In this document: piece by piece, positions 4,430-61,600 of the stretch
Numbering within the stretch: the first letter of the stretch is position 1
Layout: each line of letters opens with the position of its first letter
DNA from: Schmidtea polychroa
Taxonomy: Eukaryota
Assembly (NCBI GenBank): GCA_044892525.1
Contig: CM097885.1
Location: forward strand, 215,946,001-216,010,000
DNA: 64,000 nucleotides
Direction: 5' to 3'
The notes under the pieces: model-generated
What the model saw: the letters and a program-made list of their open reading frames with translations, nothing else
What the model was told of the DNA's origin: nothing
Databases searched by the model: none
Position numbers and translations under genes: made by a program

Positions 4430-4693
4430 ATTTAAACAATAAACTAAATATAGTTTGTAATACATTTCGCGACATAAAATATACAATTACAGCAATTTTG
4501 TCAACATAATCTTAGGTAATTTGACCGACAATTCAAATTTTATATATTTTGAAGTTCTGTTCGACATTTCGACAATTATTTAAGCGAAAGTTTTATTATA
4601 AAGGTTTGAAATAAGTAGTAACTACTATAAGATGGAATACATAGGAAAATGATGAAGGAACAATGTAAAGCGAGGCACCACGCCTTTTATATG

Positions 4694-4922
4694 CTGGGTT
4701 ACAGGTAATCAAACATTTTACCTTTTCGTGCTGTTTCCAGCGTAACCCAGAATACAATGATGATCCTACCAATTGATACCCTATGAGTGACCATCGTTGG
4801 AAATGTATCAACTGGGTGAGTACTCGCAAAAAGTGAGCGCACTACCTGCACTATAATTGTCGGGTACTCTTTGGGTCCACGGACTATCGATAGAAGATGT
4901 ACGTCCGATTTACTCTGGTCCC
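4694..4922 (-). ncRNA. Unassigned conserved structured RNA module, copy A1
   Basis: Minus strand carries GGGACC...GGAC-CTTCTATCG-GTCC...GGACCC, a GAGTAC/GTACTC stem, stem CCAGTTGATAC/GTATCAATTGG with bulge ATTTCCAA (4804-4797), and a terminal GGGTTAC/GTAACCC hairpin. Homologous to the other seven copies. Confidence 0.7.
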
Positions 4923-5063
4923 TTGACACTATTATTTTCCCAAACCTCACAAATTTCCACTCAACCTCATCAAACTAACATGCAACATACTAATGTGAAG
5001 GTACAACAGCTTTATTTACATTCCAATCATCAGAACATCTTATGGTTCTCGAGGTGATTTATG

Positions 5064-5491
5064 TTACGATGATCCGGATTCGACCAAAGGTCCTTGTTCA
5101 GCCAACCGCAGTCGTTTTAATCGTTCTCTCTTATTTCGACATAACCGTTTGCGCATGATCTTGATGGTTTTGGCCCTATGAATTTCGGCTAGCTCTGTGG
5201 ACATTGACCGGATGGCTGCCGTATCATTCTCATCTATAATCCTCTGATTTTAGCGTGTCTCCATTACGCGCATTTGTATTTTCAGCGCTCGAATTTTGGG
5301 CTTGTCTTGAGTAGTTTGGAGCTGCAATTGCTCAATCTGTTTCATGCGTTTATGCATAACCTCAGGGTGAAACCAAGTCCGTTCCATCTCTCTGCATCAC
5401 TCTTTGAACTTAGTGATGTTGTCTTGAAGACGCTCGACTTGTTGTTGGGCCTGTTCTCTGTCTTGTCTGAGATTTTCGAAGAGTTTTAACA
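5064..5491 (-). pseudogene. Decayed coiled-coil/basic ORF-B exon (unassigned family), copy 1
   Basis: After acceptor TTCAG: VLKLFENLRQDREQAQQQVERLQDNITKFKE*CREMERTWFHPEVMHKRMKQ...KIRALKIQMRVMETR*...RKRLCRNKRERLKR. Aligns by eye with 61601-62067 and 46739-47208. Confidence 0.75.
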
Positions 5492-5734
5492 CTGAATTAC
5501 AAAAACAATTAAACGATTCCTTATACGCTATTCTTCTCCCCCGTCTGAAAGCCTTATCAAACTCAACTCTCAATAGATATATAACAGAGGTCGAACCCTT
5601 ATACGTATTCTATATCTTTGCGATTAAAAATATAAAGATAGTTCGATATGATTATTTATAACAATTCTGTTTATTAAGAATGAATACGACATAAGCTACA
5701 GGGTCATGCAATACAAATAAATATGAAGATCACA

Positions 5735-6125
5735 AATCATTGTTTATTGTTATTGTCATCAGAGATCACAAATGTGTTTTCAGCTGCATGGAGCCGTCTT
5801 TCGGGGTCTACCCCGTTTTTCTCGAGTACTGGCTCGACTTAAGCCTCTTTGATAGGTTTGCCGGTTTCGGCCGCACGAATCTGGGCCTGATTCAGCCGGA
5901 GCTCGTGTTACGCGGTCTCTATGGCGCCGATAGCTCGATCTTGAGCGTCCATTAGCCGATTATTATATGGTTCGGTCTTGACCCCCGCCGGGGCGTCAGG
6001 TTCTGGTCCACTACGAATTACGGGACCCCAGTTGTCGAGGTCTTGATCCCGATTCCATGCGTGTATCTTATAACAGACATACCTGGTACGGAGGCGAGTG
6101 ATGGTCTCGTTGTACTGATTATCTT
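5735..6125 (-). pseudogene. Decayed ORF-A (unassigned), upstream of ORF-B
   Basis: GC-rich island reading RLRTRYVCYKIHAWNRDQ...DRAIGAIETA*HELRLNQAQI with three TAA stops. Resembles WLWNRIRAWNDG...HAIARLRRVELDINDGII at 63250-63960. Confidence 0.55.
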
Positions 6126-7799
6126 TGCTGGGATTGCTAGATTACGACATTTCTAAACATTTACGGTTATAGTTCGAAGATAACAAGAATGCATTCCAGC
6201 TTTCCCAATTGCCCAAAATGGCACATGAACCTTGTCCCACAATTAGAATAATTTAAGTTAATCTTGTTATCCTTGCTCAATTAATAGAACTACTTGATGT
6301 TTGATATATTTTAAATTGAATTAGTAGGTGCAGGTGGACAAAAAATATTTTAATATTACCTCCCATCACAAAACTTATTTATTAACACTAGTATCACATT
6401 TTGTTAGAGACTTTATTCGTAGGTTTGTACAGTTTCAATACCAGTGCCCTAGAGTTTTTTGGGACATTCGATTTAGCAATTAATCCTTTGTTTGAATTGA
6501 TGGGAATTTCATCTAATTAAATACCGCCAAATTCAAATATATTTTATGACGAAATAAGTACTTATGCAATTATACAGGTAAATTATAATATTTCAAAACA
6601 ACAATTATGAAATTATACGGGTAATTTATAATATTTCAAAATAGCAATTAAATTATAGCTTCTGAAAACAACAATTATGAATATATACGGGTAATGTTAA
6701 TCCGTGAAATAATATCTCTGTTATCTTAGGAAGACAGGTTCGTTCGGTAACCAAAAAAGAACGGAAGCGAAAGGACAGATTCGGCAGAGGTGGCGAACAC
6801 CATCATCAGCTATGCCTCAAGACGCATAGTCAGCCAACTAACGATTGGAGGCGTCTATGGTTTGTAATTATATCGATTAAAGTCACTATTTAGTACAAAT
6901 GTTCAGATATCTCCTAAAAAGACTCTAAATCGATTACCTAATTTAAACTTATAAATTCAAATTTATAACTCATATATAAGTAGCATTTACTACTAATTAT
7001 AAACATGTAAGGTATGGTAAGGTCATATATAAAATTTAAATTTGTAAATTGGGATTTATAAATAAGTATGGTCTATTATTATAATTATATATAGTATTAA
7101 AGAGGGGGGTCGTTTACCGAAATCCAAAACCGTAAGTTCAAATTCATAAATTAATATATAAGCGACATTGTTAAAAATTTGAATGTCTAAAGTTTAAATT
7201 GATTTGTAACTTGTAAATAGTAGTAATATACATAGGTATACGATTATGGGCATTGACAATTTACCATTATAAATATTAATAAATGGATAGGAGGGGGTTT
7301 ACTAAATAAAGTTTAAATATGAGCTTTATTAATTTTGTAGCTGGACAGTTAAACTCAGATGATATTGGCTGAATGAATTATGGATCTTGAGTTGCGCATA
7401 TGCATTTCGAAATTTTTACCGAAATATGATTGCTCTTCTCTTACGTGAACTTTTCACTTACGAAATTTAGCTCTTTTAACCTCCTTGTGGTAATTAAAGT
7501 AACCATTCATTTATCGGTTCTGAACATTGAAAAGTCGATTTTTATTCAACTGGTCTTCTTCTCATTCAGGAGTATCTGACAATTTGTCTAATTTCCTCCC
7601 AGCTTTAAAGTTTCCATTTCAGAATTCATATGCGCAATGGGGAATTCCGTACACAAATTGAAGGGTTCTAAATTTTTAGGCCTAGCCGACTACATTTTAT
7701 TAGCTAAATGTTTTGATTAATTTGAGTCTGGAGCTTTACTCCGTTTATAATATTCAAAGGTAATGTGTTGCTGTAGATTTTTAATGTAGACATTAATAT

Positions 7800-8090
7800 G
7801 TGAATTATGCATGTAAAGAGTCGATTTACAGAAAGTTGCTTGCTATCTTGACCGCACTGCGTCCACTACGACAAGCCTTAATGTTATGTAAATCGGTAAT
7901 GTACTACCGTAATATAAATAATAACGATAACGAGTTCCGAGAACTCCGCCGTACCAGAGGGTATTTATCGACGAACCCAGTGGCATATACAACTGAGTCG
8001 GTACGACCTCCGACAACCCCGCAACATATAAATACCAATAAATGCATGCCAGATAATGGCTTGCATACGTCAAGGCTGTGTGCTCAATGA
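7800..8090 (+). CDS. Hypothetical 96-aa ORF or exon, unassigned
   Basis: Open frame in a GC-enriched island upstream of RNA copy C. No recognisable domain. Confidence 0.3.
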   Translation: MNYACKESIYRKLLAILTALRPLRQALMLCKSVMYYRNINNNDNEFRELRRTRGYLSTNPVAYTTESVRPPTTPQHINTNKCMPDNGLHTSRLCAQ

Positions 8091-8459
8091 CGTTAAATTT
8101 AATAGATTAGATGCAGGGCGGATCAAAATCGAAGAATATTCAATTCGATTTTGACCCCTCCTACACGCTAAATAGAAGCAAAAATTCAAAAATTAATCAT
8201 CATAATTATATTAATAAGAGTATAATAATATCATAACCAAAGAATAAATTGTTATTACTGAATGTTTCCGTTGGTTACACAAAATAAACGTAACAAAATT
8301 TTTTTGGCATTAAGAGTGTTTTTGTGACTAAAATGTGGCGGTATATATACCTATTTTTGTGTGTGTAAATACGTGTGTGTGCGTTGATGCAGTAAAACAA
8401 ACTCGAATTCTTTTTAATTCTAGAATATTCTATTTCACATTTTGATGATTTTAATGCCA

Positions 8460-8995
8460 TAATTTTTATTTTTTAATTATTTTTTGTTAAACTTGCCTCC
8501 ATGATGGATTTGAGAATTTCCAGAACACTCCATATTAAATTAAAGTTAATTTTTTTTAAATATTGTTTTCCTAAATTCTTTTCTGGGATTTTTTTTAAAA
8601 CTAATTTATTTAATTTTTTCAACTTCCACTGATTTGAGTAGCTTTTATGATGGATGTCGCCCTATTTTTATGGATTGCTATGGATTTTTGTCTAGAATTT
8701 TGCATTGCTACTATCTTTCGAGTTTATTCGAGTTCGTATTTTGTATTTTTATGTTTCTCTGTTATGTTTGAGTTAATTTTTCTGTAATACTTCTTGCATT
8801 TTGTTGGAGTTTATTTTTAATTTCACTGTTTTTATTTTTTGTTATTTTCCTTTAATTATTATTGTTTATTTGATGTTTTTGTCTTTTAATTTTAACTAAA
8901 CTTATTATTAGGTATGCAAGTTGTGTACCACCACATTTTGCCACCTTTGCAAGATTTTTTGGGTCTAGATATTAGTTCTGGCCCAACATATGGTA
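8460..8995 (+). repeat. AT-rich dispersed repeat family ending TTAGTT(C/T)TGGCCCAACAT(A/G)TGGTAG
   Basis: Terminus matches 22728-22750. Related internal motifs (TCGCCATTAATTC, GATTTTAATCGA) link 22050-22750, 47450-47860 and, inverted, 41270-41760, 34090-34560 and 17190-17290. Start boundary approximate. Confidence 0.5.
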
Positions 8996-9080
8996 GGCGA
9001 TGAACCCAGTGATTTGCCGGCAATTGCTGTTGTAGAGCTCACCTTTTGCCGACAGTCACCCACTAGATCGCAGTTTCAAC

Positions 9081-11579
9081 TAGGGTTTAACAATATTCGG
9101 GTTTCTCAAATATTCGAATATCAAATAATAAATTCTTAAATATTCGAATTATTCGAATATTTCGAATACTTACTTGACTATGTGATAAAAAAATTTTGAA
9201 ATAAAAAAGGAAAATTAAGCAACGATTATTTATAATATTATTTATTAATGAGACTGAAACCAGCTCTTTAAAAATACAATAGCATTAATAGCTTCATCTA
9301 GCATTCTGGTTCTAAGTTTCGATACCACAATTCCAGAAGATGAAAATGCTCGTTCACTCTCGGTTGACGTTGGTTTAACTGTTAGCAGTGCATTATAAAG
9401 TAAATCCAAATTTCGTGATCTTACTCCAGTGGCTTCATAAATTTGGAATTCTTTGTTGAGCGAATTAAAATTATCACCATTAATTGGGATTGAAGGAGCT
9501 TGACTTTTTGTGATTGCTAAATTTAACTCATCGGCAATTGATGTAGGTTCAGGTTCAACACGAATGACTACAATTTCATGGTTTTCTTCACTGTTACTAT
9601 GTTGCACATTAACTTCTTTTAAAAATAATCGTTGTATTAGTTCTTTGTCATATGATAATGTAATGGTTCTAGGTGAATAAGAAAACCATTTGTTGTTTTC
9701 TTTTGATGCTGATAAATTATGCAGAAACCTCAATATTGATACCATTGCTTTATTTCTTCTCTCATTTATACGTTTGAGTAAAATTTCTTGAAATTTTATG
9801 CTTAATTCAGATTCTTCTTCCGCTAACTTATTAAGTAAAAATATAACTATCGTCTCGCAAGTTAATAATGTAGCATCTTTTCGGCTTAGTGCTAGAACCG
9901 CAACTTTTAAAGGAGCTAGAACTGCTAACATATTTTTAAGAGTGGTAATATTGATTTCACAAATTTTATCAAAAGCATTTAATTCAATTAAACTGGTTTT
10001 TATGCAGCTATATAACATTAGAAATCTTTCGATCATTGCTTCAAGAGAATTCCATCTGGTTTTAATATCTCTTATCAAACTTATTTCTTTTTGAAATTCT
10101 TGTTTTACGTATCGCTGTAAAATGCTATTTTTGGTGAGTGACCGTCTAAAGAAATCCACGACCTTTCGAATTTCTGTTATTGCTTTTTGGTAATTGGGTA
10201 GAAGAATAATGCGGTGCTCTTGTTCGGTTTCAATTTCACCAAATATTTCACCATCATCAAATTCATCATATGATTTTGATTCTGAATCTAAAGTATTTGG
10301 ATCACATATTTCTTCTTGATAAATATGTTTCTCGTTATTTTTGTAGAACATATCCATCACAGCTAAATGAATAGCATGATTCATACATTGAACGTGGTGT
10401 GTTGGATTCTCACGCCCAAACTTACACATAACACTTGCACCATCAGTGGTTGATGCAACAATATCTTTTGCAAATGTGATACCAAATTCTTTTAAATGTT
10501 TGTCTACAATTCTTTGAGTTTCTATGGCATCACAACCTCCAATTATTCGAACCATCCCTAAATTGAAAAAAACCGAATCATTACAATGAATATTTATATT
10601 GAAATATCGTTTATTGGCTAGACTTGTCCATTCATCGAGCGTTAGACTGAATCTTTCACTACTTTTTATTCTTACATTTAACCTTTCAATTGTAATATTT
10701 TTTTTGTTTTTTAAAATAAGAAATTAATAAATCCATTACTTTTGCCGGATTTTTGGGTAAAGTATATCCTTTATCAGAAATAGATTGTCTTATAAAAGAA
10801 ATTTTTGTTATTCCATTTACTGTGAAACCATCCTCAGAAACTAATCTTGCTACAATTTCATTAAGTTGTTGTTTTTTCGTGGTAACAAAATTTAAAATAC
10901 TTGAACTGGTACATATTTTTTTTGAATTGAAATTGGAGCTGTCTTCTGTCAAGCGCTTGGCAGTAAGATCCATCATATGTTTCAACTTTAAATGATTTAA
11001 CATGGGAGTTGTAGTAGATCCTTTGCAAGTTACCTTGTGTGGACATTTTGTACAAAAGGCCTCATCTCCATTTCTTTTAAAATACTTCCAAACTTCAGCC
11101 CGATTACTCATTATTTATTAATAAGGACTGAAAAATGTGAAATTTTAAATCCTTAAAAATATTTATACTTAAGTAATTGTTACTATTCTTCCAATATAAC
11201 AAAGTTCCTTTATATTTATATTTTTAGAATATTAAATTAAAATGAAATGTAATTACCTTATATTTTTGTGTTTATACATATATAGATGATTAGATCACGA
11301 TTGAATAAAACAATTGATATTTAAAAAACAATTGATATTTAACTTTTTAACAACGCTAACGGCCTACTATACTACGTACTTTTGAACCAATAAAAAAATA
11401 TTTGAAATTAATTAATAAAATTAGCGACATCTTTTATATTTCTTTTTGTAATTTAAGCTAATTAAAGAACCATTAATTATTCGACGAATAATTTAAGAAA
11501 ATATTCGAATATTGAATATCAAATGTTGTACAGATTATTCGAATAGTATTCGACGAATATATTCGTGTGTTAAACCCTA
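9081..11579 (-). mobile_element. hAT (Ac/hobo-like, BED finger) transposon, near intact
   Basis: Perfect 11-bp TIR TAGGGTTTAAC/GTTAAACCCTA. TSD GTTTCAAC / GTTCCAAC (7/8). Subterminal TATTCGAATA repeats. Confidence 0.95.
9245..11111 (-). pseudogene. BED-finger hAT transposase with one frameshift near 10700
   Basis: BED finger (VWKYF...CTKC...MLNHLKLKH) in 11111-10686. A shifted frame gives FSLTLDEWTS and runs into the 436-aa ORF with TTDGAS, CMNH, TRWNS and TESERAFS. Confidence 0.92.
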
Positions 11580-12478
11580 GTTCCAACGTCGATTTCGACG
11601 GGTGTTTAGTGATCAATTAAAATAGTTATGCGCGGTTGCGGAGGGGATACGGAAATAAGGAAAAGCGTTGGTCAAATAAGCAGTTAAAAGTGAAAGACCT
11701 TCCCCACACGTAATCCACCAATAGTTATGGGAGAAACAAGGGAGAAAAATCGACTAAATATTAAACAATTAATGCAAATTTCATAATTACACGCACTATG
11801 ATTTTACGAAGTAGCAGAAAATACGTAGGTGGACATCACAAATTGGCATAAATACCAAACAAAATTTCTTTATTTCAACTTGTGTGAAAATAGTTTAACT
11901 GTGAAAATTGGTTAAATGATTAAACTGAATTCTATGCACGTTGGGCGGTAGTTTATATTTGGTTAATGCATTTTCTATGTTAATTAAATCTTTTTAATGT
12001 TATTTGTTTTTTTTGTCTTCTGTGAATTTTGTTTATGAGACAGTCGAAAATATGAAATGAGGGCAGACGATTGGTACTCTGTTGTGTGGTAGTGGACAGG
12101 TTTGAAAAGGTCTGGTCATTTCACATCATGTGACATCATTCATGGCCGTTGCCACAGAGAGGTGATCGGAGGTATGATGGGTATCCAGGTAAGATCAAAA
12201 ATTTTCGTTCAATAATAGAATAATTAATCAAACTTATGTCTTGAAATTAGTTAGAATTTAGAATTTCGCTTTGATCGAAATAAGACGATCACAATATTTC
12301 TCATGAATATTCACACAACGAAAACTAGATAATAACGATCATTACAAAAGATCTAAGAATAAATTTTCAAAATGAAAAATGAGGGCAGATCCCTGCTCAA
12401 TATTTTTGAAAGCAACGTTAAATACCACTCAATAATGAGGACCATAACTAAATAATCAAGAAGGAACAATAAGTAAAT

Positions 12479-12581
12479 AAACCTGACTATGTAATAAGTA
12501 TTAATGTAATGAGTAGTAATTCTAGCAGTAGAGCTCACCTCCTGATTCTTGAGCCACTGTGTAAATTACCAACATAGCTAG
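12479..12581 (+). ncRNA. Partial structured RNA module copy D (3'-truncated)
   Basis: AAACCTG...ATGAGTAG...GAGCTCACCTCCTG...ACTGTGTAA ATTACCAA CATAG matches copy B1 and stops just after the bulge. Confidence 0.5.
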
Positions 12582-15182: not shown

Positions 15183-16379
15183 TAACTGTTGGGTGACGAG
15201 GGCAAGCCCATCACCACATTCACTCTTAACAAATATTACAAGACGGAGCCTGGAAAGTACATGTGCCGAGAAGATAGTGAGAGGTCAATATTATAAGATC
15301 AATTCAAACCAATCCAAAAGCAATCCAACCCACCTTGTACAGAAACTAACTATCCTTTATATGTATATTACTATCTTTTAAGACAACTGAATATCATTTA
15401 TGTGTAAACTGTACTGACTAACTTTTATCCTTTGTATTCTGTGTATATTAAATTAATTAACTTTCATTTAACAACTGAGTATCTTTTGTGATTTTGTGAT
15501 TTATATTGGTGTATTGTTTTATAAGAAAAATTATATTTTATTACATATTTAACATTCTAATAAAAGAGGATTAAATAAATAAAACATTGATATTAATTAT
15601 TATAAAATTTAAATAAATCAATCACTAATAGTACAATTAATATTAAATACGAGATATTAATAAAATATTATTATTAACACGCAATATAAAATTAATATTC
15701 TAGGCCGGAAACAAATAATGAAAATAATTATATAATAAATATATAACACGCGATTTTATAATTATTAAAAAAATATGTCAATAATTAATATATAATTCCG
15801 TTCGTATAAGCCGGAAATATAATTATTATATTTTAGGGTTATTAATTTAATATAAATGTTAGGGATAGGCCTGCAGCCTGAAACAATAAAACAATAGATA
15901 TTACTCAAAAAAAGTATATTAAAGTAATAAAACAATTACCTAATATAGAAATATATATAATTAAAATACTATAAATAGAAATAATTTATATTTGGTATCA
16001 ACTAGTGTTGCTAATAAATAGTAGTTATAAATTATAAATAAATATAATATAAATAGTGGTTCAAAATGAGAACCAGTGACGCAAAAATTTGTAAGCGAAA
16101 AACGTGACTAAACATAAAGTACTTAGGAATTGAAAAAGCGAAAAGAAGTACACCATTAAAAATAATCAATTGAGAAACAGCTGTAGAAGTATTAAAATCA
16201 AAGTATTTGGGGAAGCTCTAATAGAAATTAAATATCCAACATTTGGAGTTGGAATATGAATTGAAAATCTTACGGTTGAAAAAAAGTTGTGAAATTCAGG
16301 AGATAATTTGAAACCAGAATATCTGCGGAAATTGTTGAAAAAGAAACAGTTGCTATTTTTTCAAGGTAAAAGAAATTTA

Positions 16380-16755
16380 TTGTCGCAATCAAGGTCCGGA
16401 AGGGTCTCTTCCAACGACGCCCGATGTCATCTTCATGGGCACCAATACTTTTACAGTCGACCCCGGTCAAAGTCACTTCCTCACTGACGGTTCCAGCAAT
16501 TTCCAACCCCGTTCCTGCACAGTCAACTGCCGGAAGCGTAAGCGCCTCATTCGTGTGGAGCGCTCAAAGAAACGCCGGGACAAAACCGCATTGTTCGCTG
16601 TCCCAAACCCTGAAAGAAAGAACTCCACATCCAATCCAGTCCTGTCCAGTACTCCTCAATATCGGATAATACCTGCTGCTAATTCGACGTCGTTCTCTGA
16701 TCCACAACTAGAGATGGATATCGCAGCTATGCTGAGAGAACATGTTGAATTTTGA
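16380..16755 (+). pseudogene. Low-complexity basic ORF-C terminal exon (unassigned), copy 1
   Basis: CRNQGPE..TTPDVIFMGT...RKRKRLIRVERSKKRRD...QYRIIPAANS...LEMDIAAML aligns with 40043-40483. Confidence 0.65.
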
Positions 16756-16938
16756 TAAATAAACTGCATCGATGATTGCCCAAGGACCGTTTATGATCTG
16801 ATTCACTAGTTGTTTTGCTCTGTGAGTGTGTCGGTTCTACAGACATGCTATATAGTTTGTTAGTTGAGAATGCATTGTCATTACTACTCCTAATATAATT
16901 TTGTATCTTTTGACAGTCTGGCCAAAGAAGACAGGAAA

Positions 16939-17182
16939 GATGTAAGCCCTTCTATCGGCATTCTAGAACCCGAAAGTTGAGTATCATGAGTAGTCCTAAC
17001 ACATGAGCTCACCTGCTCATAAACTCCAACCCGTGTGTACATTACCAACATGAGCGACCTCATGGGTACACATGAGGGGGTAAAAGTTATAAATCATAAC
17101 GGGCGTTTGGGAAGGAGTCTTTCTCTGAGACAACAAATCATTGCCCTTAGCAACCACCATCACGACGCACCCCTAAGCGCTC
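16939..17182 (+). ncRNA. Structured RNA module copy B1
   Basis: GATGTAAGCCCTTCTATCGGCA..GAACCCG. Stems GAGT/ACTC and ATGAGTAG/CTGCTCAT. CGTGTGTAC ATTACCAA CATGAG CGAC CTCATG G GTACACATG at 17032-17074. Terminal GGGCGTTTGGG/CCCTAAGCGCTC. Confidence 0.75.
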
Positions 17183-17524
17183 AACAATAAATAAAAACCC
17201 AGATCAGACAAAAACGATATATACATCGATTTAACAATCTAAGATACATAGCACGCACTACATAGGATATAACAAAAAAAATTTTTCAAGCAATTATGAA
17301 TTTAAATCTGAAGAGATAGTCAATTGAAAAAATCCAAGCTATTGTCAATCAGAAATTTTATCATTGGTAAATTTTGGTATTCAATAAATATTTATAGACT
17401 CATATTCTCTTTATTTACATAGGAACCAGTAAAGTTGAGAATTTCAAATATTGAGAACTCAACATAATTATCCATATGAAATCTAGGAATTTTGACCTTT
17501 ACCGGTATTAATTTGAAATTTTTA

Positions 17525-19189: not shown

Positions 19190-19246
<57 letters not shown>

Positions 19247-33959: not shown

Positions 33960-36183
33960 ACAGATATAGAACATTCAAAACTCAAAGTGTCGGAATTTTA
34001 GCGCCAAAACATAAGCCTGGCAGCGGTGTTCACTCACGTGAAGGGTAAATGGTAATTCAGTCAATCACTGCCATATGCTTGTCGAGCAGAAAATTTAGTT
34101 TTTGTAATTTATGTTGGGCTAAAAACCGGGGAAACCCGAATTTTTCTGGAAAATAACTAAATAAATCCTTGTGTATAGCATCAAATTTGGGTAATCACTC
34201 AAGTATTAAGTAAAAACAAAGAATAAGGAAAGTAGAAATATTAAATAAAATAAAATCGCCAAAACGAAATAGACATCGAATAACTCTTAAACAAACAAAA
34301 CACAACCATAACTGATAGGCAAAGCAAAATAGCTAAGAAAAATAAAAAAAAATATCAAAAAAATAAAATATTAATAATAAAACAAACGATAATTAAGAAA
34401 AACGAAAAGAATAGAATACAAAAGCACCAACAGAATAACCAACAGGATCCAACAAAAGAAAGAGGAAAATAAGAAAAATTAAATTATTTAATAAATTACA
34501 AAATAAAAGAAATAAACCACCTCAGGGAAAGCGTTAATAAGAATAAAAAAGAGAAAAAATCACCACTTTACACAATAGCTGGATGAAATTTAATATATAA
34601 GAAAGCGACTTGACTGATTCCCTCAATTTTTAAACTCTGAATTTAGGACAATCGTTTGAACTCACATTTAGTTTCAATCATTTCATTCAAGGTTAAGGAA
34701 ATCATCCAGCATTAATTCGAAATAGTTAGCTTCAGTTATAAAGCGCACCATAATATTCTATTTGGATCGAAATCGAGAAATGTAAATTTTATGTTTTGTT
34801 ATTTTTATTTTTACGTTATGTATACTTAGTTGAATTGTAAAATTATTATGAATTAAAATATTAATATCGTTAATAACGTTCTCTTTTCTCATCATATAAA
34901 TATATTTGCATTCAGGTAAAAAGTCGATTAAGTATGAAATTTTTATAGTTTCGAAAATGTCCTTAGAATGAAGAACTGGAGTCGAAATATTATTGTAGAA
35001 TTTATGAATGGGAAATTAAGAGTGATTGACTTTGCAGCTAAGTTCGTGGAAGATGTTTAGATCGTGGAAATGATTAAGGTATGTTGAGAACCGATAACAT
35101 AGACGCTATTCCAGAAGCGATTTGGTCACTGAAATGCGATGCGAAATATAGACATGGAAAATACTACCAAGAATCGGTGAACCATTAGGCATCGACGTAG
35201 AATCCCAGAGATCTATCAAATTAATAACGGTGCCGAGCAACGGCCGAGGATGAGAAGAAATTGCCGAGGAAAATTAGGAGACATTGAGAGTAAGATGAGA
35301 TTGAAGTAGCAAGAAGAATCCATGAAGATAAAACATCGAAACCAATGAGAAAGCACGAATTGAGCTACAGCGAGCCAGGCAGAGTATTAGCACGGAAGTA
35401 TTTTCAGCGAGTATAGGATCGGTAGGCGCTAACAGAATAAGGGAGTGTGAATCACTCTTAATTTCAACTAAATGAGGCAAGTCTTGATAGAAGCAGATAG
35501 GAAATACTTGAGTGTTGCAATTTTTTTAAAATTATATTATATTGATTTGATTTTTATTAATGTGCATGGCGAAACCGTTTGGGAGGACGTTTGGATGCCG
35601 TTGGTACTTGTACTGATGGTGAACAGATTGTTCTCATAGATGGGTGCGCTAAGAGTTCAGGTAGATGTGAAATAGTGTGAGAAGTTGATCGTCTGAATAG
35701 GAATAGTAAACGAGATTGTTCTTCAAATCAGCAGTGGATACAGCTCGAATTACGAATAGGCTAGTCTTCTTCTATCACATAACCTTTTCCGTTAAGCAGT
35801 TTCAATGAAGCTCTTGACCCTACGTGACCCATTGGTCGGAGACAATACAGTAACACCTCCATTAGCACACTCTGAAAACTCCGGTAAGACGTTCCAGGTT
35901 TACTTTCACTTAGATATGGCCGACCAAGCTGTCAATTGTATTTTTCAAGGAAATCGACGAATTTGCTAAACATCCGCAATCATTCACGTACCTGATGTAG
36001 CGTAGACTCTAAGAAAATCCGTGTGGATAATCGAATGTAAACTTCCGTCGTTTATCAGAAAAATCACCGTCAGTCATTGAGGTAGACTTATTATATCACT
36101 ATATTAAGGCGTGAGAAATTCGCTCGATTAGACATAACCATCTCCTTAAATCAAAATAGTAATCTGTTATTATTGTCGTAATT

Positions 36184-37443
36184 AAACTCAAACAGGATGT
36201 GCTGCTAATATCGACGACGAACAACTTTCTAAAATTCTGACTTCACCGGCATCACTTAGTGTAAACAAATTCTGGGGACTGAACACAAAAGTTTATTGCG
36301 ATAAAATAATTCATTAATCCAACCTACTAAGGAGAAATGTTTATCATTACTAATAATTAATATTATCATTTAATTAACTTATCCCCTGCGAAATAGAGTG
36401 GAGCTTATTTTTGAACTTTCAAAATATTACCTTCTTACCCTCCCATTCTGTTCCTATATATGAAAGAAAAATTCAGGCAAAATATGAACACAATTGAACA
36501 ATATTTAGGGGTAGCTCAAGGACAGAGAAGTTTCTGATACTCTTAAGCAGCGGCCGCCCATTTATTTACGGTACTTTACTATAGTAACTGAGAACTAAGT
36601 AAATTGAGACTTTCTCAGACTCTGATAATCATACAACATTTCAATATCGTCATCTTCTGAAACCAGCTTAGATGGTGGAAACATGAAAAGTGGAGAAAAT
36701 CTGAGTGATGATGCTGCAGGAGGCAGCACATTTCGGACGCCAAAAAGAAAGAGGGGGCGAAAAACTGTTATTACTCCAGAACTTGCAGTAGCTTTAGATA
36801 GAACTAAAGTGTCAAACTCAAACAGGATGTGCTGCTAATATCGACGACGAACAACTTTCTAAAATTCTGACTTCACCGGCATCACTTAGTGTAAACAAAT
36901 TCTGGGGACTGAACACAAAAGTTTATTGCGATAAAATAATTCATTAATCCAACCTACTAAGGAGAAATGTTTATCATTACTAATAATTAATATTATCATT
37001 TAATTAACTTATCCCCTGCGAAATAGAGTGGAGCTTATTTTTGAACTTTCAAAATATTACCTTCTTACCCTCCCATTCTGTTCCTATATATGAAAGAAAA
37101 ATTCAGGCAAAATATGAACACAATTGAACAATATTTAGGGGTAGCTCAAGGACAGAGAAGTTTCTGATACTCTTAAGCAGCGGCCGCCCATTTATTTACG
37201 GTACTTTACTATAGTAACTGAGAACTAAGTAAATTGAGACTTTCTCAGACTCTGATAATCATACAACATTTCAATATCGTCATCTTCTGAAACCAGCTTA
37301 GATGGTGGAAACATGAAAAGTGGAGAAAATCTGAGTGATGATGCTGCAGGAGGCAGCACATTTCGGACGCCAAAAAGAAAGAGGGGGCGAAAAACTGTTA
37401 TTACTCCAGAACTTGCAGTAGCTTTAGATAGAACTAAAGTGTC
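36184..37443. repeat. 630-bp apparently identical tandem duplication across a transposon junction
   Basis: 36184-36813 is repeated at 36814-37443. No differences seen by eye. Confidence 0.95.
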
Positions 37444-39265
37444 AGATCGCAAGGCTGTTTTCGTTATTGCAGAAACTGCTAAAAGCCTGGGACAGAACAT
37501 CGACGAACTTGCTCTAAACAGAGACTCGATTCGACGACTTAGGGTAGAACATCGAGTTCAGAGAGCTGCCAACATAAAAGCAAAGTTCCAGGATAATGTA
37601 CTACTTGTAGTTCATTGGGACGGCAAACTGATTCCTGATCTGATTGGAAAGGAGAAGGTTGATCGACTGCCGGTTTTGGTTTCTGGAAAAGGAGTATCTC
37701 AGCTACTTACAGTTGCTAAGCTTCCATCTGGAACAGGCGAAGCTCAGACTGCTGCTGTATATGAAGCCATCAAAGACTGGGGCATAGCCAAGAGTATCCG
37801 AGCTGTGTTTTGACACTACTAGCTCAAACACTGGTCGGATTGCTGGTGCTTGTGTACTGTTAGAGCAGAAGCTTCAGAAGGAGTTGTTATCACTGGCTTG
37901 TAGGCACCACATTATGGAACTGATAATTGGGGCAGTTTTCCAGGTCTGCATGGGAGCCTCATCCTCCCCAGAAGTTGCACTCTTCAAACGCTTTCAAGAG
38001 TTCTGGAGATTTATAGATACGGCTAAGTATGAAGCAGGCACTACAGCTGATGACGTAGCAAGTTTACTGGAGGATATAAAGCAAGACACCGTCGATTATG
38101 CCAACAAGTATCTTGAACAGAGTCAGCCGAGAGATGACTATAAAGAATTCTTGGAACTTGTAATTGTCTTCCTCAGTGCTGCTCCTCCCAGAGGTGTACG
38201 GTTCATGGCACCTGGTGCAATGCACCATGCTCGTTGGATGTCCAAGGTGATATACAGCCTAAAAATTTGGATGTTCAAGGCGCAGTTCAAGCTGACTACT
38301 GCAGAAGAGCGAGGGTTGCGTGATGTTTGTGTATTTGCAGTACGAGTGTACCTGAAAGCTTGGATATCTGCACCTCAAGCAGCAGGTGCTCCATTCAGTG
38401 ACTTGCTGCTGCTGAAGTCGCTGCTCGAGTATTCATCAATACATGCAGCCATTTCAAAGGCAACATCTCGCAAGTTTGCAAATCATTTGTGGTACTTATC
38501 TGAGAAACTGGTAAGCTTGGCTTTTTTCGACAGTCGGGTCAATTCGTCAACCAAACGACTGATGGTGAGTGCCATGCAAAATGATGAAAACCAGGATTCT
38601 GATCATTGCAAACGTATCACAGTTGCTCTTGGTTCATTTAAAGAGAAAAACTTGGAAGATTTTGTCACAGCTACATCAATGATTCTGCTTCAACAGCTTG
38701 AACTGCCAGATGGATTTCTTGCAGTTGACCCAGACTTGTGGGGAGACAGAGATGATTACAAACAAGCTGCAGAAACAGTTACATCTCTAAAAGTTGTAAA
38801 TGACCATGCTGAGCGTGGAGTGGCCCTCATTCAGGAATACAGTGGATTAATCACCCGTGATAAAACACAACTTCAATTCTTGCTGCAAGTTGTCCAGGAC
38901 CATCGCAAAATGTATCCCGACAGCAGGAAAAAGACTCTGTCCGCCATCTCTGGGTTTACATAATAACAGTTAATTTCAAGTTTGCTGGACATTTACAGAT
39001 TGTTTGTGTCAGAAGCTAAAGAAACATTTCACTATTAATGTCTATGTGTGTAACACTGAAGTTTGCAAAAAAATAAAATAGAATCAGAATTTGTTGAATT
39101 TACAAAAATTTTATCATATTTCAGGCACTTGAGCTACCTCTAAACATAAAAATTTATTGCTTAAACTTTTTATACAGTGTTTCTATACCATAAGGAACAG
39201 ATTAGGGGGGTAAGACTTTCAAAAATTATTTTTTTATTTTTTTTTATTTTTTAAGCTCCACCCTG
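37024..39265 (+). mobile_element. hATm-type transposon, young
   Basis: TIRs TAGAGTGGAGCTT / AAGCTCCACCCTG (11/13). Perfect TSD CTGCGAAA at 37016-37023 and 39266-39273. Confidence 0.93.
37313..38963 (+). pseudogene. hATm transposase broken by one extra T near 37810
   Basis: VVHWDGKL, DRLPVLVSG, (AVF)DTTSSNTG, LACRHH, PRDDY, HHARWM, LWYLSE and VNDHAERGVALI. Lacks the N-terminal region seen in the 12857 copy. Confidence 0.9.
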
Positions 39266-40042
39266 CTGCGAAATGCCCATTATAATTAAAAAGTAAAGGT
39301 ACTGCGAAATAATCTTAACTCTAATTAGACAAATAAACGAATCAGATGAAATGACGGGTAAGAAGCGTACCGAGTAGGATGTGGGTTATAGTAGAGGTTG
39401 AATTCAAATTCGAAGTGAAGATTCAACATCTCAAATCGGTAAGCCTCCCCTCACTGAAAATTCATTTCTATTTGTATAATGTTAGATTAATTTAATTAAA
39501 TTCGAATTGTGGTCGGCGAAAACTCAAGTACCAGGTTAAGATAATTTTCATTTCACGTTACTCCGTTCTGAAACCACCCGATCTAGCAACATTAGGCCTC
39601 GCCCTAAATTAATCGCAAATTTAAATAGATTTCATTTACAGTAAAGGATAATAAACCATTCATAATTTGATCAAATCTCGCTCCCGGTAGTTTTATAAAG
39701 TAAGGATGAGTTCGGTTAAGCAAATGATGGAAAGATTCCGTCGACTTCTGCAATCGTGTGTAAAATTTGAAAGCGGTAACTTCTGAATAACAATGAATGT
39801 GGCTCGAATTTACTACCAGGAAATCCCCTTAACGAAAATGTATATTTTAGCTTATGTCAGAACCGAATCTTCCACCATCCGACCCGAAACCAAGTTTTTC
39901 GTGCGCCGATAAAAACGCAAATGTGCGTCAACTAAACAAATAGACACGCTGGTTCTCCCCACCACCTATGAAGGAGGCGAACAAAAAGATTCAACGAAAT
40001 TGAAACGCCGCATCCACGAGTTTCCGCTTGCGGACAAACTGA

Positions 40043-40483
40043 ATGTGTTTCCAGTTCATCATCGGACCGTCTAGATCATTATGTAACAATCATGGCCCCG
40101 AGATATTTCCTACTGCAACCCCTGACATCGTTTTCCTGGGAACCAGTCAGATGCAGCCGACACTCACTGGTACTTCCAGACCATCAAATGTTCCAGCGAA
40201 CTCCGACAGCGTTCCAACTCAACCAAATCCACGAAAAAAGAAAAAACGGTTAACCCGGGCGGAAAGATCCAAGAAACGTCGTGACGAGATCTCGGCCCTG
40301 GAAGCGACTCTGTTTGCCGTCTCTGAGGTCAGTAAAATCCAACCGCCGCATGCTCCGGTGGCACCAATTGCCACCCAATATCGATCGATTCCAGCAGTTA
40401 ATTCTAGGGCTGTTAATGATTCATACCTGGAATCTGACATCGCCGCCATGTTAGCCGAGGGCGAAATGCAGACGGCGAATTGA
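40043..40483 (+). CDS. ORF-C terminal exon (unassigned, basic NLS-like tract), copy 2
   Basis: 146-aa open frame CNNHGPE..TATPDIVFLGT...RKKKKRLTRAERSKKRRD...LESDIAAML, homologous to 16380-16755. Preceded by small exon-like segments at ~39330-40040. Confidence 0.65.
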   Translation: MCFQFIIGPSRSLCNNHGPEIFPTATPDIVFLGTSQMQPTLTGTSRPSNVPANSDSVPTQPNPRKKKKRLTRAERSKKRRDEISALEATLFAVSEVSKIQPPHAPVAPIATQYRSIPAVNSRAVNDSYLESDIAAMLAEGEMQTAN

Positions 40484-40775
40484 CCAATATTTACTCGAGA
40501 CTGTTGTAGTTACTCGGTTCCAATTACAGTTGTCGCAAATTTCAAAGATTGTGTGAACTGATTCAATGATGTTTCTAACTTCTATATATCTAGATTTGTA
40601 ATACTTCTAATATAATTGTGTATCAGATGCTTTCTTTCGTTGCGTTTTGTTGCGTGATGTATAATCATAGAACAGTTTGTTAGAGAGTCACGTAGGTGTA
40701 ATAAACTTTTAGAGACGACCTAACTTGAATCATGGGTGTCGTATAGTCGAAAAGGGATCAGATAAGAAAGAAAAA

Positions 40776-41017
40776 GATGTAAGTCCTAACGGCAATCAGG
40801 AACCCGAATGATGAATATCGGTAGGAGTAGTACTAACATAGGGGCTCACCTGCTTACGAATTCCAACCCATGTGTACAGTACCAACATGATTCCTTATCA
40901 TGGGTACACATGCGGGAGAATACTGTCAAACCATATTGGGCGTTTAGGAAGGAGTCCTCCATAGCACAATCGTCATCATTCCTAGTAACTGCCTTTGAAA
41001 CACACCCTTAGGCGCCC
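40776..41017 (+). ncRNA. Structured RNA module copy B2
   Basis: CTAACGGCA..GAACCCG. Stem GAAT/ATTC (compensatory to GAGT/ACTC in B1). CATGTGTAC AGTACCAA CATGAT TCCTT ATCATG G GTACACATG at 40869-40912. Terminal GGGCGTTTAGG/CTTAGGCGCCC. Confidence 0.75.
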
Positions 41018-42984
41018 AACATTTAGCTACTGTTTTGGGTACTTGTATTAGTTGTATATACCTACATAGTAGAATTATTCGTGGGACATATTTTAAACAT
41101 CACTGGGCCACTTATTCGTCAATAGTTGAGTTATCTTTTGATAGCTCAAAGTATTTTGAATATCTTTCGCTAGATTTGTTTTTGCTTCAAAGGCCCATTT
41201 TAATCTTTAATCCAAAATACTTTTAAATGGAGCTTCATTATAGTTCTTCCTGCCTCTCGTTCAAGTGTTGGACAAAAAGTGATTTAGGCCCACGTATAGT
41301 TAGCGTGATGGAATGAGTCGGAAAATAGGACGCAGGCACAAATACCGAATAAAGTTAAACTCAAGACACGTCAAAACATCGATTAAAATCCACTAAACAG
41401 AATTCATTTGACACCAAAATGACAAACACAAAACTAAAGAAGAATAAAATAGGAAAATAAGTATTTCACGAAACGAACTGAAACATAACATAAACACATC
41501 AGAAAAAAATTTGAATTAATGGCGATAATAGAAAGTAGCAGCGGAAATTAGAAAGATTTCGACAAAAAAACACCAAAAAATGAATTAGGAATAATAATTT
41601 CAATAAAAATAATAAAAGCTAGAATATTCTATAAAAATGGCGAAATTCATCATAGCTGCCAAGTAGCTAATTGAAACAAACTAAAAGATAAAATATTTGT
41701 GAATTAAATTATCAAAAAACTAAAATCAGAATTAAAATAAATAGGTTAGGGTGATTGTACTATTCTTGAAACGCTTCCAAAATCTGATCGAAAGCCGTCA
41801 CTTGGTCACTAGGCATTTACACGCCGGCGATTCGTCTTGCCTTTATATCACTAATAGGCTGATTTACTCTGATTTAGTAATCTCTTGTGCTTTTATTTGG
41901 ATTGTGTTGTGTGCGCGCTGTTTATAACATATTTCATAAATATCAAGACATTTTTTAATAATGTATTTAGACGAAGAATTGAGAGTACTTATACCAAATA
42001 TCGCTGAAATCTGCAAATGCCGACAAGCGGATGTATTACATTAAATGATTTTCGCATCAAGTAAATTCCATTCGAGTATATATATTTCAAATGATTTAAA
42101 AGCAATGAATTTGCAAAAATTATTTTAATGTATTAATAAATATATTTTACTTAATATTTTCATAAATTATAATGCAATAATGAACCTGGATCAGATGGTC
42201 ATTACTGTATACAATTATTAAAATTTGATATTTTAATTGCAGGAAATACAATATTTACACCGTTAATAACACCAACCAAATTATAATTATAAATTTGTCT
42301 GGATCAAATAATTAATTGAAATAAATGTAATGCAATTAACAAAAAAATGAAACAAAACATTAAAATAGTATTATTGCTAATAGAATTATAATTAGTATGT
42401 TATATGCAAGGAATTATTATTATATGTGATTATATTTCAACAAATTCTAACTTTTACTTGTAAAGTTGAAGAATTTCTAGAATTTTCTGAGTGAGATTCA
42501 CTAGACAACTCATCATTAAAATTTATTAATAAATCCAACTTACAGTTTAGTTTTGGATAAATTTGATGATCCTCGTTTATAATGACTTGGCATAACAACT
42601 CTTAATTAACACTTAAATACGTTTAAATAAAATCATTCATTTTTCTAAAATTAATATATGACTAATACACAATATCATAAATAATATTCAATTATTATTA
42701 AAATACTATAGAAAAAATAAAGTGCAAGAAATTAGACGTGGTATATTTAAGAATATTAAAACAATGCAGATTCCAGAGTAATTTTAATTATTTAAAATAT
42801 TTTAATTAAGATAATTATTTCACTTTCAATTTAATATCGAAATATTTTAATTAAAGTACTGAAAGACTAAATATATAAAAGCACAAATTATAAAATATAT
42901 TTATATTATAACATTAAATTTCAAAAAAAATGTGCTTAAATATTTTTATAACATTTTTATTGATTAAGTTTTGTTTCATTTTTG

Positions 42985-43226
42985 GAACGTCACTATAGAT
43001 TTAAAAGTGACAGTTTATACTGGTACTTATAGATGTTGAATCGACTCCTTCATAAACGTCTACATGATTATTGTACTTTATGCCATCTGGGCATCCATGG
43101 TGATAACCAAGTTGGTGCTGTACACAATGTTTGAAAATCCATGAGCAGGTGAGGTCTATCCCTAAAACTACTCCTCATGATATTTTTATTTTCGGGTTCT
43201 GGACTGCCGATAGAAGGTCTTACGTC
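42985..43226 (-). ncRNA. Structured RNA module copy F
   Basis: GACGTAAGACCTTCTATCGGCAGTCCAGAACCCGAAA...GAGTAG...CTCACCTGCTCAT...TGTGTAC AGCACCAA CTTGGT TATC ACCATG G...GACGTTTATGAAGGAGTC. Confidence 0.7.
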
Positions 43227-43635
43227 ATTTTTATTCTTTTGCGACTGTTGCTCGATTTTTGTCATATGATCGTTTAATTGTGGTCCACATTTCTGGATGT
43301 TTACTATTGTTCTTTTTCTAAAGTTTCGCGCAGGAATTCACCCATATTTCCCGGTTAATAAATGTTATTTTATTATTCTATGCAATACCTGCGAATATTC
43401 AACCTATCTTTCAAATATGTTAGAAGATGGAAGAACGTTAAAAACTTTGAAACTCAAATACTATATAATAGGAACAAACAGGTACAGAGTAAATATGCAT
43501 GTGGACAATAGTCAATGATGATGATATCTATGCGATGAAAAGAATAAACATTATTGTTATAACTTATTATTAACAATTTGATTTATATTGATTTATTCTT
43601 GATGACATTATAATAAATTTGTATTGTTGTTATTG

Positions 43636-46453: not shown

Positions 46454-46678
46454 ACACAGGTAATACAGATACTAACCTTTTCTGATGATTCCAGCTCAAC
46501 CCAAGATACAAGATACCCAAGATATGTCACACGATAACCGTAAAGTACTCAAAGTTGGTACTGTACCGCATTTGAGAAAGGAAAAGGAGCGTACTTCTAT
46601 GCATTATAATTGGCAAGTGTTCAAAAAGGTTTGTAGACTGCCGATAGAATGCTTTGTGCCCGACTTTTGTCTGGTCCC
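46454..46678 (-). ncRNA. Structured RNA module copy E (decayed)
   Basis: GGGACCAGAC...TTCTATCGGCAGTC..AAACC...TAC AGTACCAA C...GGGTTGAGCTGGAATC..GAAAAGG...ATTACCTGT parallels copies A1 and A2. Confidence 0.65.
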
Positions 46679-59024: not shown

Positions 59025-61320
59025 ACTTAAGTTTTTATGAAAATATTATAATCAATATATTTTTAAAGTAATAATTGATAATTAGAAAATGATTATACAC
59101 CAATCTCTCGCTTAATAAAAATTATTTTTACAAAGTTTCGTCATAACGTTATTTCAAAATTAATCCAAAGTCTCGGTTTATGTAATAAAATTTCAATTTA
59201 CGAACAATTTTTCGTTATCGAATTAATTAATAAAGTTTTTATTGATTATTGAATCCTGCCAATTTAATTTACCCACTCCTAACCGGCCCTCTGTCGAGTT
59301 CGCTTCAACTTCCTTTGATAATTGTCTAATTAGTCGGGTCTCAGTACGCTCCGGGATTTCCATTAGCGATTAATTAATTTTTAATTCATTTGTTTTTGCT
59401 TTATAACTTTTTATGGGGATTCCGTAATAAATTTCTGGGCTCGTCTTTTGATTTGACGTTCAACCATACACACTTCCACAGATCAATATTAATTTTCAAT
59501 TAATTTTTGAACTATTAGTATTTTGATTTTTTTAATGATTTTTATTATGCTTCCGTTTTATTTTATGACTATATATATTACCCCAACATTACTTAGACCT
59601 TTGAGGGTTTATCCATGATGGGTGAGAATTTTCAAAGGATCAAAATATTTTATCACTTAAGATTTCATAACACTTCATAATCTATATGTCCACTGAAAGG
59701 GGAAGCAATGATCATAATTTATTTTACCATAGATTCTTCTAATTTTTCCAAGTATTGATTTTTGATAGTAGCCATAGTTCTATTTAGATATTGAATATTT
59801 TCATGTACTTCGGCCCGAATTATTATTTTAGTAAAGTTTCTTGTCATATCATTTGAAAACAGCTACACCCAATTCCGAAATTGAGTAACCTCTATAATTC
59901 ACGTTGGTGTGCACACCAGTTGAGTGAGTCACCATTTACGTGAAAATGAAGTTACTCAATTTCATTTATTCAATTTATTAAAAATGGTTTTCAGGTAATT
60001 TTTTTAATTTCAAGTATATTTTAAGACTTGAATTTTGATTTTATATAATTATGAGATCATTATTCAAGTTCTTAAATATTACTGTTAGTCATCATTTATA
60101 ATTTATCATTTATAAATATAATTTAATTCAATTTCAGGTGTTTTTTAGGAAATTTATGATATTTTATGCATTAATATGGATTTATTTCGTTAAAATGTAA
60201 GTTAGATATTTTTATATTTATAAATAAATAAAGTAATCACCAAACACATTTATTTTTTAAGACATTTAGGAAAAAATCGGCGTACATGAACGAAATAATT
60301 TTTTAAATTTTTATAATCTTCTTTCTGCAGCTCATTTTCGATGGCTTTTTTCTTTCTGTAAATCAAAATATCTCGAAGGTTTTCAATATGTGAAATGCTG
60401 CCTTCCCACATACTATAAAATATTTTAATATTTTGTAATTTAATGAATAAAACTTACATTGTATTTTCTTCTTTTTCCCTAAAGCTCAAGGTAGAGCTGT
60501 CGGAATCTAAATTAAAAGTATTTTCTTGCATTTTTTAATAATTTTAAAATAATTATATTTTAACAATATGTTAACAGTTATTTATTTCGGAACAAAAACC
60601 TATATAAGAATTTTGCATGCATTTTTCATTATGGGTTTTGTGTTGGTGTGTTCAGTTATTTTTCTCTCACCTTCACAAAACCTATAATAAAGTTACTAAA
60701 TTTTGGAACAATAAATTTCTACACACAGGTAAGTTTGTGTGTTCCTATAATATATATTTATTGATTTTTTTTAGATTATAGAAGTTATTAAATTTCGGAA
60801 TTAGGTGTACTTCATTCAATTGATGAGATCACATATACTACTCAAACCCACCTCAATAACAACGTCTGTCATCCTGTTATAATAGTTTACTCCTGCCTAC
60901 GCCCTCCAACATATTTAATTCACTTTCACGCTAGAGAAATTTTGTGATAAAATGACTCGAAAAATTTCTATATTGTTTTATAAATTTATTAAAATACTAA
61001 ATTAAGACTTCTTAAATTTATGAAATTCATAAATTGGTAAAATTTTGATTCTTTAAAAATCCCAAAACAATTGATAAGATTAAAGTTTTTGAAAATTTCT
61101 GAGAATTCTTCCAATATAATTTCCATGGAAACGCCAAAAATTTATTTATAATTGAAAAATTTAAATTTCTAAAAATTTGGTTGTTTATTCGCACCAACGC
61201 ACTCACATTGATAGTGAAATTTCCAAATTTTGGTAAAATTATTTTACTATAATTTTATAATAATCAAATTTCTACTTTCAGGAGAACAATTCCTGGGGAG
61301 ACTTAATTCCCTATTACGGT

Positions 61321-61552
61321 GGGGTTACAGGTAGATCACATTTTATCTTTCGGACTGTTTCCAGTGTAACCCAGAATACAAATATGTTGCTATATTGCTT
61401 GATATCCGTTGAGTGAACAACGTTGGAACTGCTTCAAAGGGGCGAGTACCAGTGAAAGGTGAGCATACCTGTCTATACTATAATCAGTAAGTACTCAAGC
61501 GGGTTCGCGGTCTGCCGTTAGAAATCATGTGTCCAACTTTAATTTAGGTCCC
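61321..61552 (-). ncRNA. Structured RNA module copy A2
   Basis: GGGACC...TTCTAACGGCAG..GAACCCG. GAGTAC/GTACTC around GCTCACCTTT. Bulge AGTTCCAA with upper stem CGTTG/CAACG. Terminal GGGTTAC/GTAACCC. Confidence 0.75.
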
Positions 61553-61600
61553 TGCTGTACTAATCACCTTCTTCATGTTTCTACTCTACTCAATCTCCCT

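Follow-up and report, generated by a model that had tools for sequence, protein, structure and literature searches.

The 64-kb window analysed here (C1:215,946,001-216,010,000; positions without a contig name refer to it) is AT-rich, has repeats that point to a planarian-type genome, and contains several copies of one hairpin, which was searched for over the 781-Mb assembly. In copy B1, at 17032..17074 on the plus strand, it forms a 9-bp lower stem, an 8x1 internal loop, a 6-bp upper stem (CATGAG/CTCATG) and a 4-nt loop. The arms at 17033-17040 and 17066-17073 pair in the lower stem, the bulge ATTACCAA occupies 17041-17048 with a near-invariant A at its first position and CCAA at 17045-17048, and a lone G (17065) stands opposite. 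The hairpin is found at no fewer than eight places in the window, namely in B1, B2, A1, A2, C, and three further copies, all within long terminal repeats (LTRs) or remnants of them. Copy B2 (34112..41021, +) is a complete solo LTR that later took up insertions. It runs from TGTTGGGC to GCCCAACA, is flanked by a 4-bp target duplication (TTTA/TTTA) and has its bulge at 40878-40885; inside it (36184-37113), a stretch of at least 300 bp recurs identically in the same orientation with 630-bp spacing. Copy A1 (4692..8988, -; bulge 4797-4804) is a solo LTR starting with TGTTGGGCC at 8988, with flanks that agree in three of four bases (CATA/TATA), and it sits inside a C-type LTR, 90 bases upstream of a hAT insertion. 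That insertion (9081-11579, with TAGGGTTTAAC ends and the 8-bp duplication GTTTCAAC/GTTCCAAC) splits the fold of copy C (8989..11720, +; LTR end at 11720) within the bulge, so that the 5' arm, displaced to about 9062-9071, is unreadable. Copy A2 (61317..61553, -; bulge 61423-61430) comprises the fold and the LTR end. The three further places are a B-type copy (43038..43241, -) with the bulge AGCACCAA at 43112-43119, an A-type copy (46455..46678, -) with the bulge AGTACCAA at 46555-46562, and a B-type fragment (12515..12575, +; hairpin match at 12565) that stops just past the bulge. In B1, a terminal domain (17101..17186, +) closes on the LTR 3' end (...CAACA), and because no primer-binding site (PBS) follows, B1 is what remains of a solo LTR or a 3' LTR, its 5' part having been lost. 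The window copies are dead solo or broken LTRs that carry the fold passively.

The original prediction described a stem-bulge-stem at 17032-17074 with a conserved 8-nt bulge and freely rewritten helices. The structure is present as claimed, and both its pairing and its two-sided changes lie far above shuffled controls. A first look at the genome gave 1439 (B1), 3112 (A1), 163 (C), 702 (A2), and 17 (46.5-kb copy) candidates, which are not copy numbers. Fetched loci yielded 166 distinct matches, 151 of which could be anchored at the bulge, while 15 had no aligned column or no room. In a covariation set of 72 copies picked for diversity out of the 151, 87.3% of 997 cells pair, compared to 66.0% after shuffling and at most 47.8% in slid controls. 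Two-sided changes occupy 277 cells, compared to 98.5 in shuffles (reached by 0 of 500) and 33-76 in slid controls, although the copies share kinship and these counts are not numbers of independent events. Such changes are seen at 13 of the 14 hairpin pairs, and most positions show three or more pair types. The stem-bulge-stem is therefore a real, evolutionarily conserved RNA fold.

Column conservation is higher in the bulge than in the stems, with a mean top-letter frequency over the 151 copies of 0.87, compared to 0.70 in the upper and 0.65 in the lower stem; the values for 38 representatives (<85% identity, pairing score >=14) are 0.85, 0.71, and 0.58. Within the bulge, the predicted conservation holds for positions 1 and 5-8 (0.92-0.99), but not for positions 2-4, which vary (G/T, T/C, A/T). 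At position 4, A occurs in 109 copies, T in 37, G in 5, and C in none. The helices do covary, but they are not rewritten throughout: conservation of the two closing C-G pairs and of the opposite G (0.87-0.93) equals that of the bulge. The fixed set thus comprises C(-1), A1, C5, C6, A7, A8, C(+1), and the GGG on the opposite strand. The B1 bulge ATTACCAA is found in 33 of the 151 copies; the A1 bulge ATTTCCAA, which had been counted among the kept forms, turned out to be a private change (2 of 151). The bulge word alone barely exceeds chance, with 37 matches compared to 26.5 +/- 4.5 expected and 3 of 100 shuffles reaching 37.

The hairpin belongs to a conserved fold of about 250 nt at the LTR 3' end of Burro-type giant Gypsy elements. 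Ten multi-copy subfamilies share positionally fixed words, namely CTTCTA at about -94 from the bulge, AACCC at -75, GCTCAC at -34, and CCAAC at +4. In B1, CTTCTA, present in all 10, belongs to a small hairpin, CC-TTCTATC-GG (16948..16958, +), which we take to resemble a T-loop. Downstream of it, GAACCCG (16966..16972, +) is the complement of CGGGUUC, the T-arm 5' strand of tRNA-Pro, and may act like a primer activation signal. An upstream hairpin with covarying helices (16986..17020, +) carries the conserved GCTCAC at an internal loop. The consensus folds of the A and B types both return this upstream hairpin and the stem-bulge-stem, with two-sided changes at 15 of 37 and 20 of 31 pairs, respectively. 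In the A-type consensus, AACCCA is paired with UGGGUU of the terminal domain, and in the B-type consensus, GAACCCG is unpaired. GAACCC is found in 22 of 25 distinct PBS-bearing U5 regions. In one subfamily (L179, L205), the bulge is kept, GAACCC is absent at -75 and the terminal domain is longer. A search of 16850-17250 against Rfam gave no match up to E=1.

The LTRs encode one or two small proteins, whose ORFs follow splice-acceptor-like sites; one product has an AT-hook-like RGRPRK tail and the other a coiled coil with a basic tail. Copy B1 retains the broken 3' part of the coiled-coil ORF (16339..16755, +), and further LTR-borne ORFs are found at 40043-40483 and in another locus (L185:41-405 and 630-1102). 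In B1 and A1, AATAAA follows the second ORF, which suggests that the fold is placed in U5. Contigs of four sequencing runs, guessed to be RNA, fall mostly on the last 230 bases of the A-type LTR, a distribution that shows neither transcription nor ends. The LTR-borne ORFs had no homologues in the word index and gave only weak coiled-coil matches in Pfam, with no known family. A profile search returned 15 proteins at E <=0.001, most of which, among those inspected, share a coiled-coil/W-x-x-P core within unnamed gene models; one match (P0002) was false and repeat-driven. A role of these accessory proteins as transactivator or export factor is possible.

The identity of the element follows from its ends and its internal region. 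The LTRs start with TGTTGGGC and end in CCAACA or CCACCA, and are thus of the TG...CA type with a short inverted repeat. The sharp start was found by walking to the 5' ends, and some copies share sequence past the CA end. An exact 4-bp target duplication is present in 6 of 15 long copies with this start, in addition to B2; 3 of the 9 long copies without a duplication are PBS-bearing 5' LTRs, at which none is expected. Sampled PBS-bearing LTRs lead into gag, CCHC, MATH, fusion glycoprotein (L224), protease, RT, RNase H, integrase, and ankyrin (L215) domains, with the order PR-RT-RH-IN in downstream proteins 1 and 4 (Pfam). The internal region spans about 25 kb, as judged from one case with a 3' LTR at that distance downstream (L211-L213), and one short internal region lacks pol (L208-L209). 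Three internal/3' LTR junctions (L209:2400-2431, L213:5709-5734, and L223:1000-1034) show no clear purine run and carry GGG(T/C)CCC..GAGTG.TT in place of a polypurine tract. At the first of these, the stretch GGTCCCGG is also found in the tRNA, and the junction could base-pair with GGGACC at the 5' margin of the U5 fold.

This architecture is that of Burro/GYPSM1, giant Gypsy-like LTR retrotransposons of planarians (PMC6431247), which share the ~25-kb internal region, a giant polyprotein with gag, CCHC knuckle, MATH, fusion glycoprotein, PR-RT-RH-IN and ankyrin, accessory ORFs, and thousands of copies; the assignment is by architecture as described there. Section 7 of the same paper describes no U5 RNA fold, primer tRNA or LTR-borne ORFs for these elements. 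A search for a PBS-bearing copy of the B1/B2 subfamily itself found none and returned two of a sister subfamily, so that B1/B2 is tied to the element by its target duplications (L044, L045, and B2) and the shared fold. A non-LTR or retroplasmid element with a 3'-terminal tRNA-like structure, considered since a 7-bp stem and ACCA, but no poly(A), stand at the end of A-type copies, is ruled out by the TGTTGG starts, the 4-bp duplications, the PBS, and gag-pol. The terminal CCA/ACA is an LTR terminus that runs on into the spacer and PBS rather than a free RNA end, and B-type copies finish in AACA. No common RT was found in 95 upstream regions of up to 9.6 kb each, and no convincing target duplication of >=7 bp was seen at 79 element ends. 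The bulge sequence is constrained while the helices covary, and this within a reverse-transcribing element, in agreement with the original view of the hairpin as a functional core.

The primer of the element could be assigned from its PBS. Genome-wide, 970 exact matches consist of an LTR end, 3-8 nt and TTGGGGGCTCAGCCGGGAT, compared to none for the reversed control. The 18-nt PBS is complementary at 18 of 18 positions to the last 15 gene-encoded bases plus CCA of tRNA-Pro(TGG). In all of the first 30 PBS-bearing loci, including subfamilies with strongly differing flanks, the hairpin lies 104-160 nt before the LTR end. With an anchored pattern, CCAAC is found at the bulge in 27 of 27 distinct PBS-bearing leaders; a looser tally gave CCAA in 28 of 30, probably because an earlier site was caught in two loci. 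About 7-8 nt (TGATTTT or TACAAATT type; L178-L207) separate the LTR CA from the PBS. The usual LTR-to-PBS spacer has two bases, and the greater length would mean unusual integrase end processing.

The genes for tRNA-Pro form long tandem arrays of a 475-bp TGG and a 442-bp CGG unit (C1:130.90-130.94 Mb and beyond, C3:142.53-142.58 Mb and beyond; assembly G000), with ~2,300 pattern matches. Two patterns found no tRNA-Pro(AGG) gene, perhaps because its sequence is different or because the assembly lacks it. In the PBS-pairing stretch, tRNA-Pro(CGG) differs by a single base, which faces PBS position 18. This position is T (UGG type) in 970 cases, A (CGG type) in 18 and never C or G, even though non-UGG tRNA-Pro genes number 616 (the first 100 listed are all CGG) compared to at most 2293 pattern matches for both isoacceptors, i.e. 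at least 27%. The 970:18 ratio is only suggestive of a bias toward the UGG isoacceptor, as a terminal mismatch alone gives some discrimination and ancestry could also account for it. In Ty1 and Ty3, the tRNA is not the source from which the PBS is inherited (PMC5371799). The bases right after the 18-mer are highly variable, with 16 five-letter forms in 30 loci, as would be expected if the junction were remade at the modified A58 in every cycle.

The bulge reads as a codon of this primer. Its CCA is a proline codon of the primer tRNA and is followed by a purine, CCAA being complementary to U33-U34-G35-G36 of tRNA-Pro(UGG), and the invariant stretch covers exactly this codon plus one purine. Position 4 would face G37, and G37 of tRNA-Pro is normally methylated and unable to pair. 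From the codon-plus-purine bulge, the T-arm complement GAACCC and the precedents of T-box and HIV, we propose that the U5 fold is a primer-docking platform in which the bulge reads the anticodon of tRNA-Pro(UGG), as the A-rich loop of HIV does, and we put the probability of this reading at about 0.45. In the genomic RNA from the 5' LTR, the 3' 18 nt of tRNA-Pro(UGG) would anneal to the PBS, and annealing would free the T-arm 5' strand to pair with the upstream GAACCC(G) as a primer activation signal. The intact anticodon arm would then dock on the codon CCA formed by C5-C6-A7 of the bulge, A8 would stack on U33 or pair with it, and the bulge geometry would be held by A1, the opposite G and the closing C-G pairs. 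As an outcome, the UGG isoacceptor would be selected and the start of minus-strand synthesis controlled. LTR identity, location, PBS, tRNA, covarying fold, fixed letters, and complementarity are the observed elements of this model, to which all intermolecular pairs outside the PBS and the effect on initiation are added as what we infer from them. A stronger version, in which a T-box-like tRNA reader evolved independently, with a specifier codon decoding the anticodon, the T-arm gripped and perhaps the elbow contacted via the T-loop, is somewhat doubtful; if true, the element would pick one proline isoacceptor and gate its reverse transcription.

Several results bear on the strength of this proposal. 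A 1.45-Mb scan in which the bulge was left free revealed no family with another triplet among its 63 matches, of which 53 had CCAA, 4 had shifted registers of CCAA and 6 had single changes. All PBS-linked families share tRNA-Pro(UGG), although the search pattern itself required that tRNA, and CCAA rather than CCGA is retained at the six A-type PBS loci examined. A bulge/anticodon match of 3-4 bp can arise by chance, and as a set the conserved U5 words show no greater complementarity to the tRNA than to shuffles (4-mers 10 of 35, p 0.21; 5-mers 1 of 7, p 0.53), so that the case for docking leans on position-specific matches and precedent. In 27 leaders, the predicted mean unpaired probability is 0.34 for C5, 0.38 for C6, 0.88 for A7, and 0.95 for A8; in these folding predictions, the pairing of C5 and C6 seems to come mostly from a slip onto the GGG strand. 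In 3 of 4 bulges, UGG and CGG could not be told apart by simple duplex energies, because the model slid into other registers.

Other functions of the bulge can be envisaged. Fixed loop letters and fixed closing pairs amid free helices would also fit a protein-binding site, for Gag/nucleocapsid as a packaging signal, for RT, or for the LTR-encoded basic coiled-coil protein in a TAR- or RRE-like circuit. The fold is located in the leader region, as are retroviral packaging signals, and many LTR subfamilies encode an ORF with an arginine/lysine-rich tail directly upstream. Nevertheless, a young B2-type LTR (L168) keeps the bulge without such an intact ORF in its last 1.5 kb, and protein binding leaves unexplained why the fixed letters spell the primer codon; we consider this reading rather unlikely. 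CCAA has two further complements within the element, UGUUGG at the LTR start and UUGG at the PBS edge. CCAAC(A/G) might instead pair with UGUUGG at the 3' LTR start, circularising the RNA 5' to 3' for strand transfer, or CCAA might mask the PBS edge until the tRNA arrives. Every LTR start seen is TGTTGG, a 6-bp match with a G.U pair, both spacers finish in TT ahead of the PBS TGG, and Ty3 employs 5' and 3' PBS halves (PMC5371799). We consider such long-range pairing unlikely, given that the 6-bp form has to open an invariant closing C-G pair and that position 4 is never C although its partner would be G; moreover, LTR starts are in any case set by integrase, so that nothing covaries.

A local switch, in which C5-C6 slip onto the invariant GGG strand and leave an AA bulge, or a tertiary contact of UWCCA with a GNRA hairpin of the terminal domain, appears decidedly unlikely. 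The slipped register can pair in 67-92% of the 72 copies per pair and also appears in folding, but its five pairs total 5 two-sided changes compared to 45 in the main-register pairs 9-42, 10-41, and 11-40. Pairing of the bulge with TGGAA of the terminal hairpin, as originally suggested for A1 and A2, has proved weak. A2 (UUCCA/UGGAA) and young A-type copies (UACCA/UGGUA) are complementary, but position 4 and the loop letter match in only 21 of 46 A-type copies and mismatch in 25, and no TGGAA-type terminal hairpin was seen in the B-type alignment; where present, it is predicted to fold by itself. The other early idea, that the bulge serves as an epsilon-like template for protein-primed reverse transcription, has become very improbable now that the element is recognised as an LTR retroelement with a tRNA PBS. 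The stem-bulge-stem outline is indeed that of epsilon (PMC12691608), and CCA occurs again at the LTR end. However, a canonical 18-nt PBS is present, pol is of the Gypsy type with integrase and no terminal protein among the Pfam matches, and the CCA/ACA end is an integrase-type LTR terminus with target duplications. The element ends beginning with TTGG(T/A)A that this idea called for did not appear either, since the minus-strand ends actually read TGTTGG or TGGTGG.

The proposed docking platform can be compared to several known systems. In HIV, the A-rich loop pairs with the primer anticodon loop and the primer activation signal contacts the T-arm; HIV-1 and HIV-2 thus share with the planarian element a loop upstream of the PBS that is complementary to the primer anticodon loop and a motif complementary to the T-arm 5' strand (PMC3185550). 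In contrast to HIV, the planarian element presents a sense codon (CCA plus A), which sits in an 8x1 internal loop; the hairpin around this loop covaries and lies 104-160 nt from the LTR end. The HIV A-rich loop is close to the PBS. Moreover, the planarian bulge is kept across subfamilies with unalignable flanks, whereas the importance of the HIV loop depends on the isolate, and the pairing that has been shown for HIV is here predicted from complementarity. In T-box Stem I, the specifier codon occupies a side bulge and a conserved purine follows on its 3' side (PMC7583486). The planarian bulge has the same arrangement and is predicted to read anticodon positions 34-36, but no K-turn, AGUA/GAA S-turn, interdigitated T-loop pair or UGGN antiterminator bulge was seen in the alignments. 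It also differs from T-boxes in belonging to a eukaryotic retroelement, in placing the tRNA 3' end on an 18-nt PBS, and in giving no Rfam T-box match (16850-17250, E=1).

Ty1 and Ty3 are likewise LTR retrotransposons and require contacts with the tRNA outside its acceptor stem, but they use tRNAiMet and a split PBS engaging the T- and D-arms (PMC5371799), whereas the planarian PBS is a full retroviral-type 18-mer. HTLV-1 uses one tRNA-Pro(UGG) isodecoder, i.e. the same primer family with the same isoacceptor bias, and the relevant part of PMC11251516 does not name the RNA determinant of this choice. Hepadnavirus and nackednavirus epsilon share the stem-bulge-stem outline with a conserved bulge but differ in protein priming, DR1/DR2 and a terminal protein (PMC12691608), none of which applies to the planarian element.

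The element class and extended primer contacts in retroviruses and Ty elements are already known. The U5 fold, the primer assignment and the codon-like bulge are apparently new, as no description of a Burro U5 structure, primer or codon-like bulge appeared in the literature searched, which included PMC11410931, PMC8532177 and PMC13238120 and outside which lie the original Burro paper and Repbase. These results supply an RNA family absent from Rfam, name the primer of Burro-type elements and identify a very dense repeat of this genome as their solo LTRs. The role of contacts outside the PBS in primer choice is still argued for HIV (PMC3185550), and the single-isodecoder choice of HTLV-1 is unexplained (PMC11251516). 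With thousands of diverged copies, a covarying structure and few fixed letters, the planarian elements make the question of primer choice open to test.

Finally, the window contains features separate from the LTRs. ORF pieces on the minus strand (17522-19649), with similar pieces in another locus (L101), have no Pfam match and presumably resemble Polinton/adintovirus capsid-region proteins. Copies of another, MITE-like repeat family, palindromic and bounded by terminal inverted repeats, are found at 26906-27034, 30014-30139, 31638-31702, and 53500-53714. The sole Rfam match in the window is a mir-753 precursor at 60017-60078 (67.5 bits).
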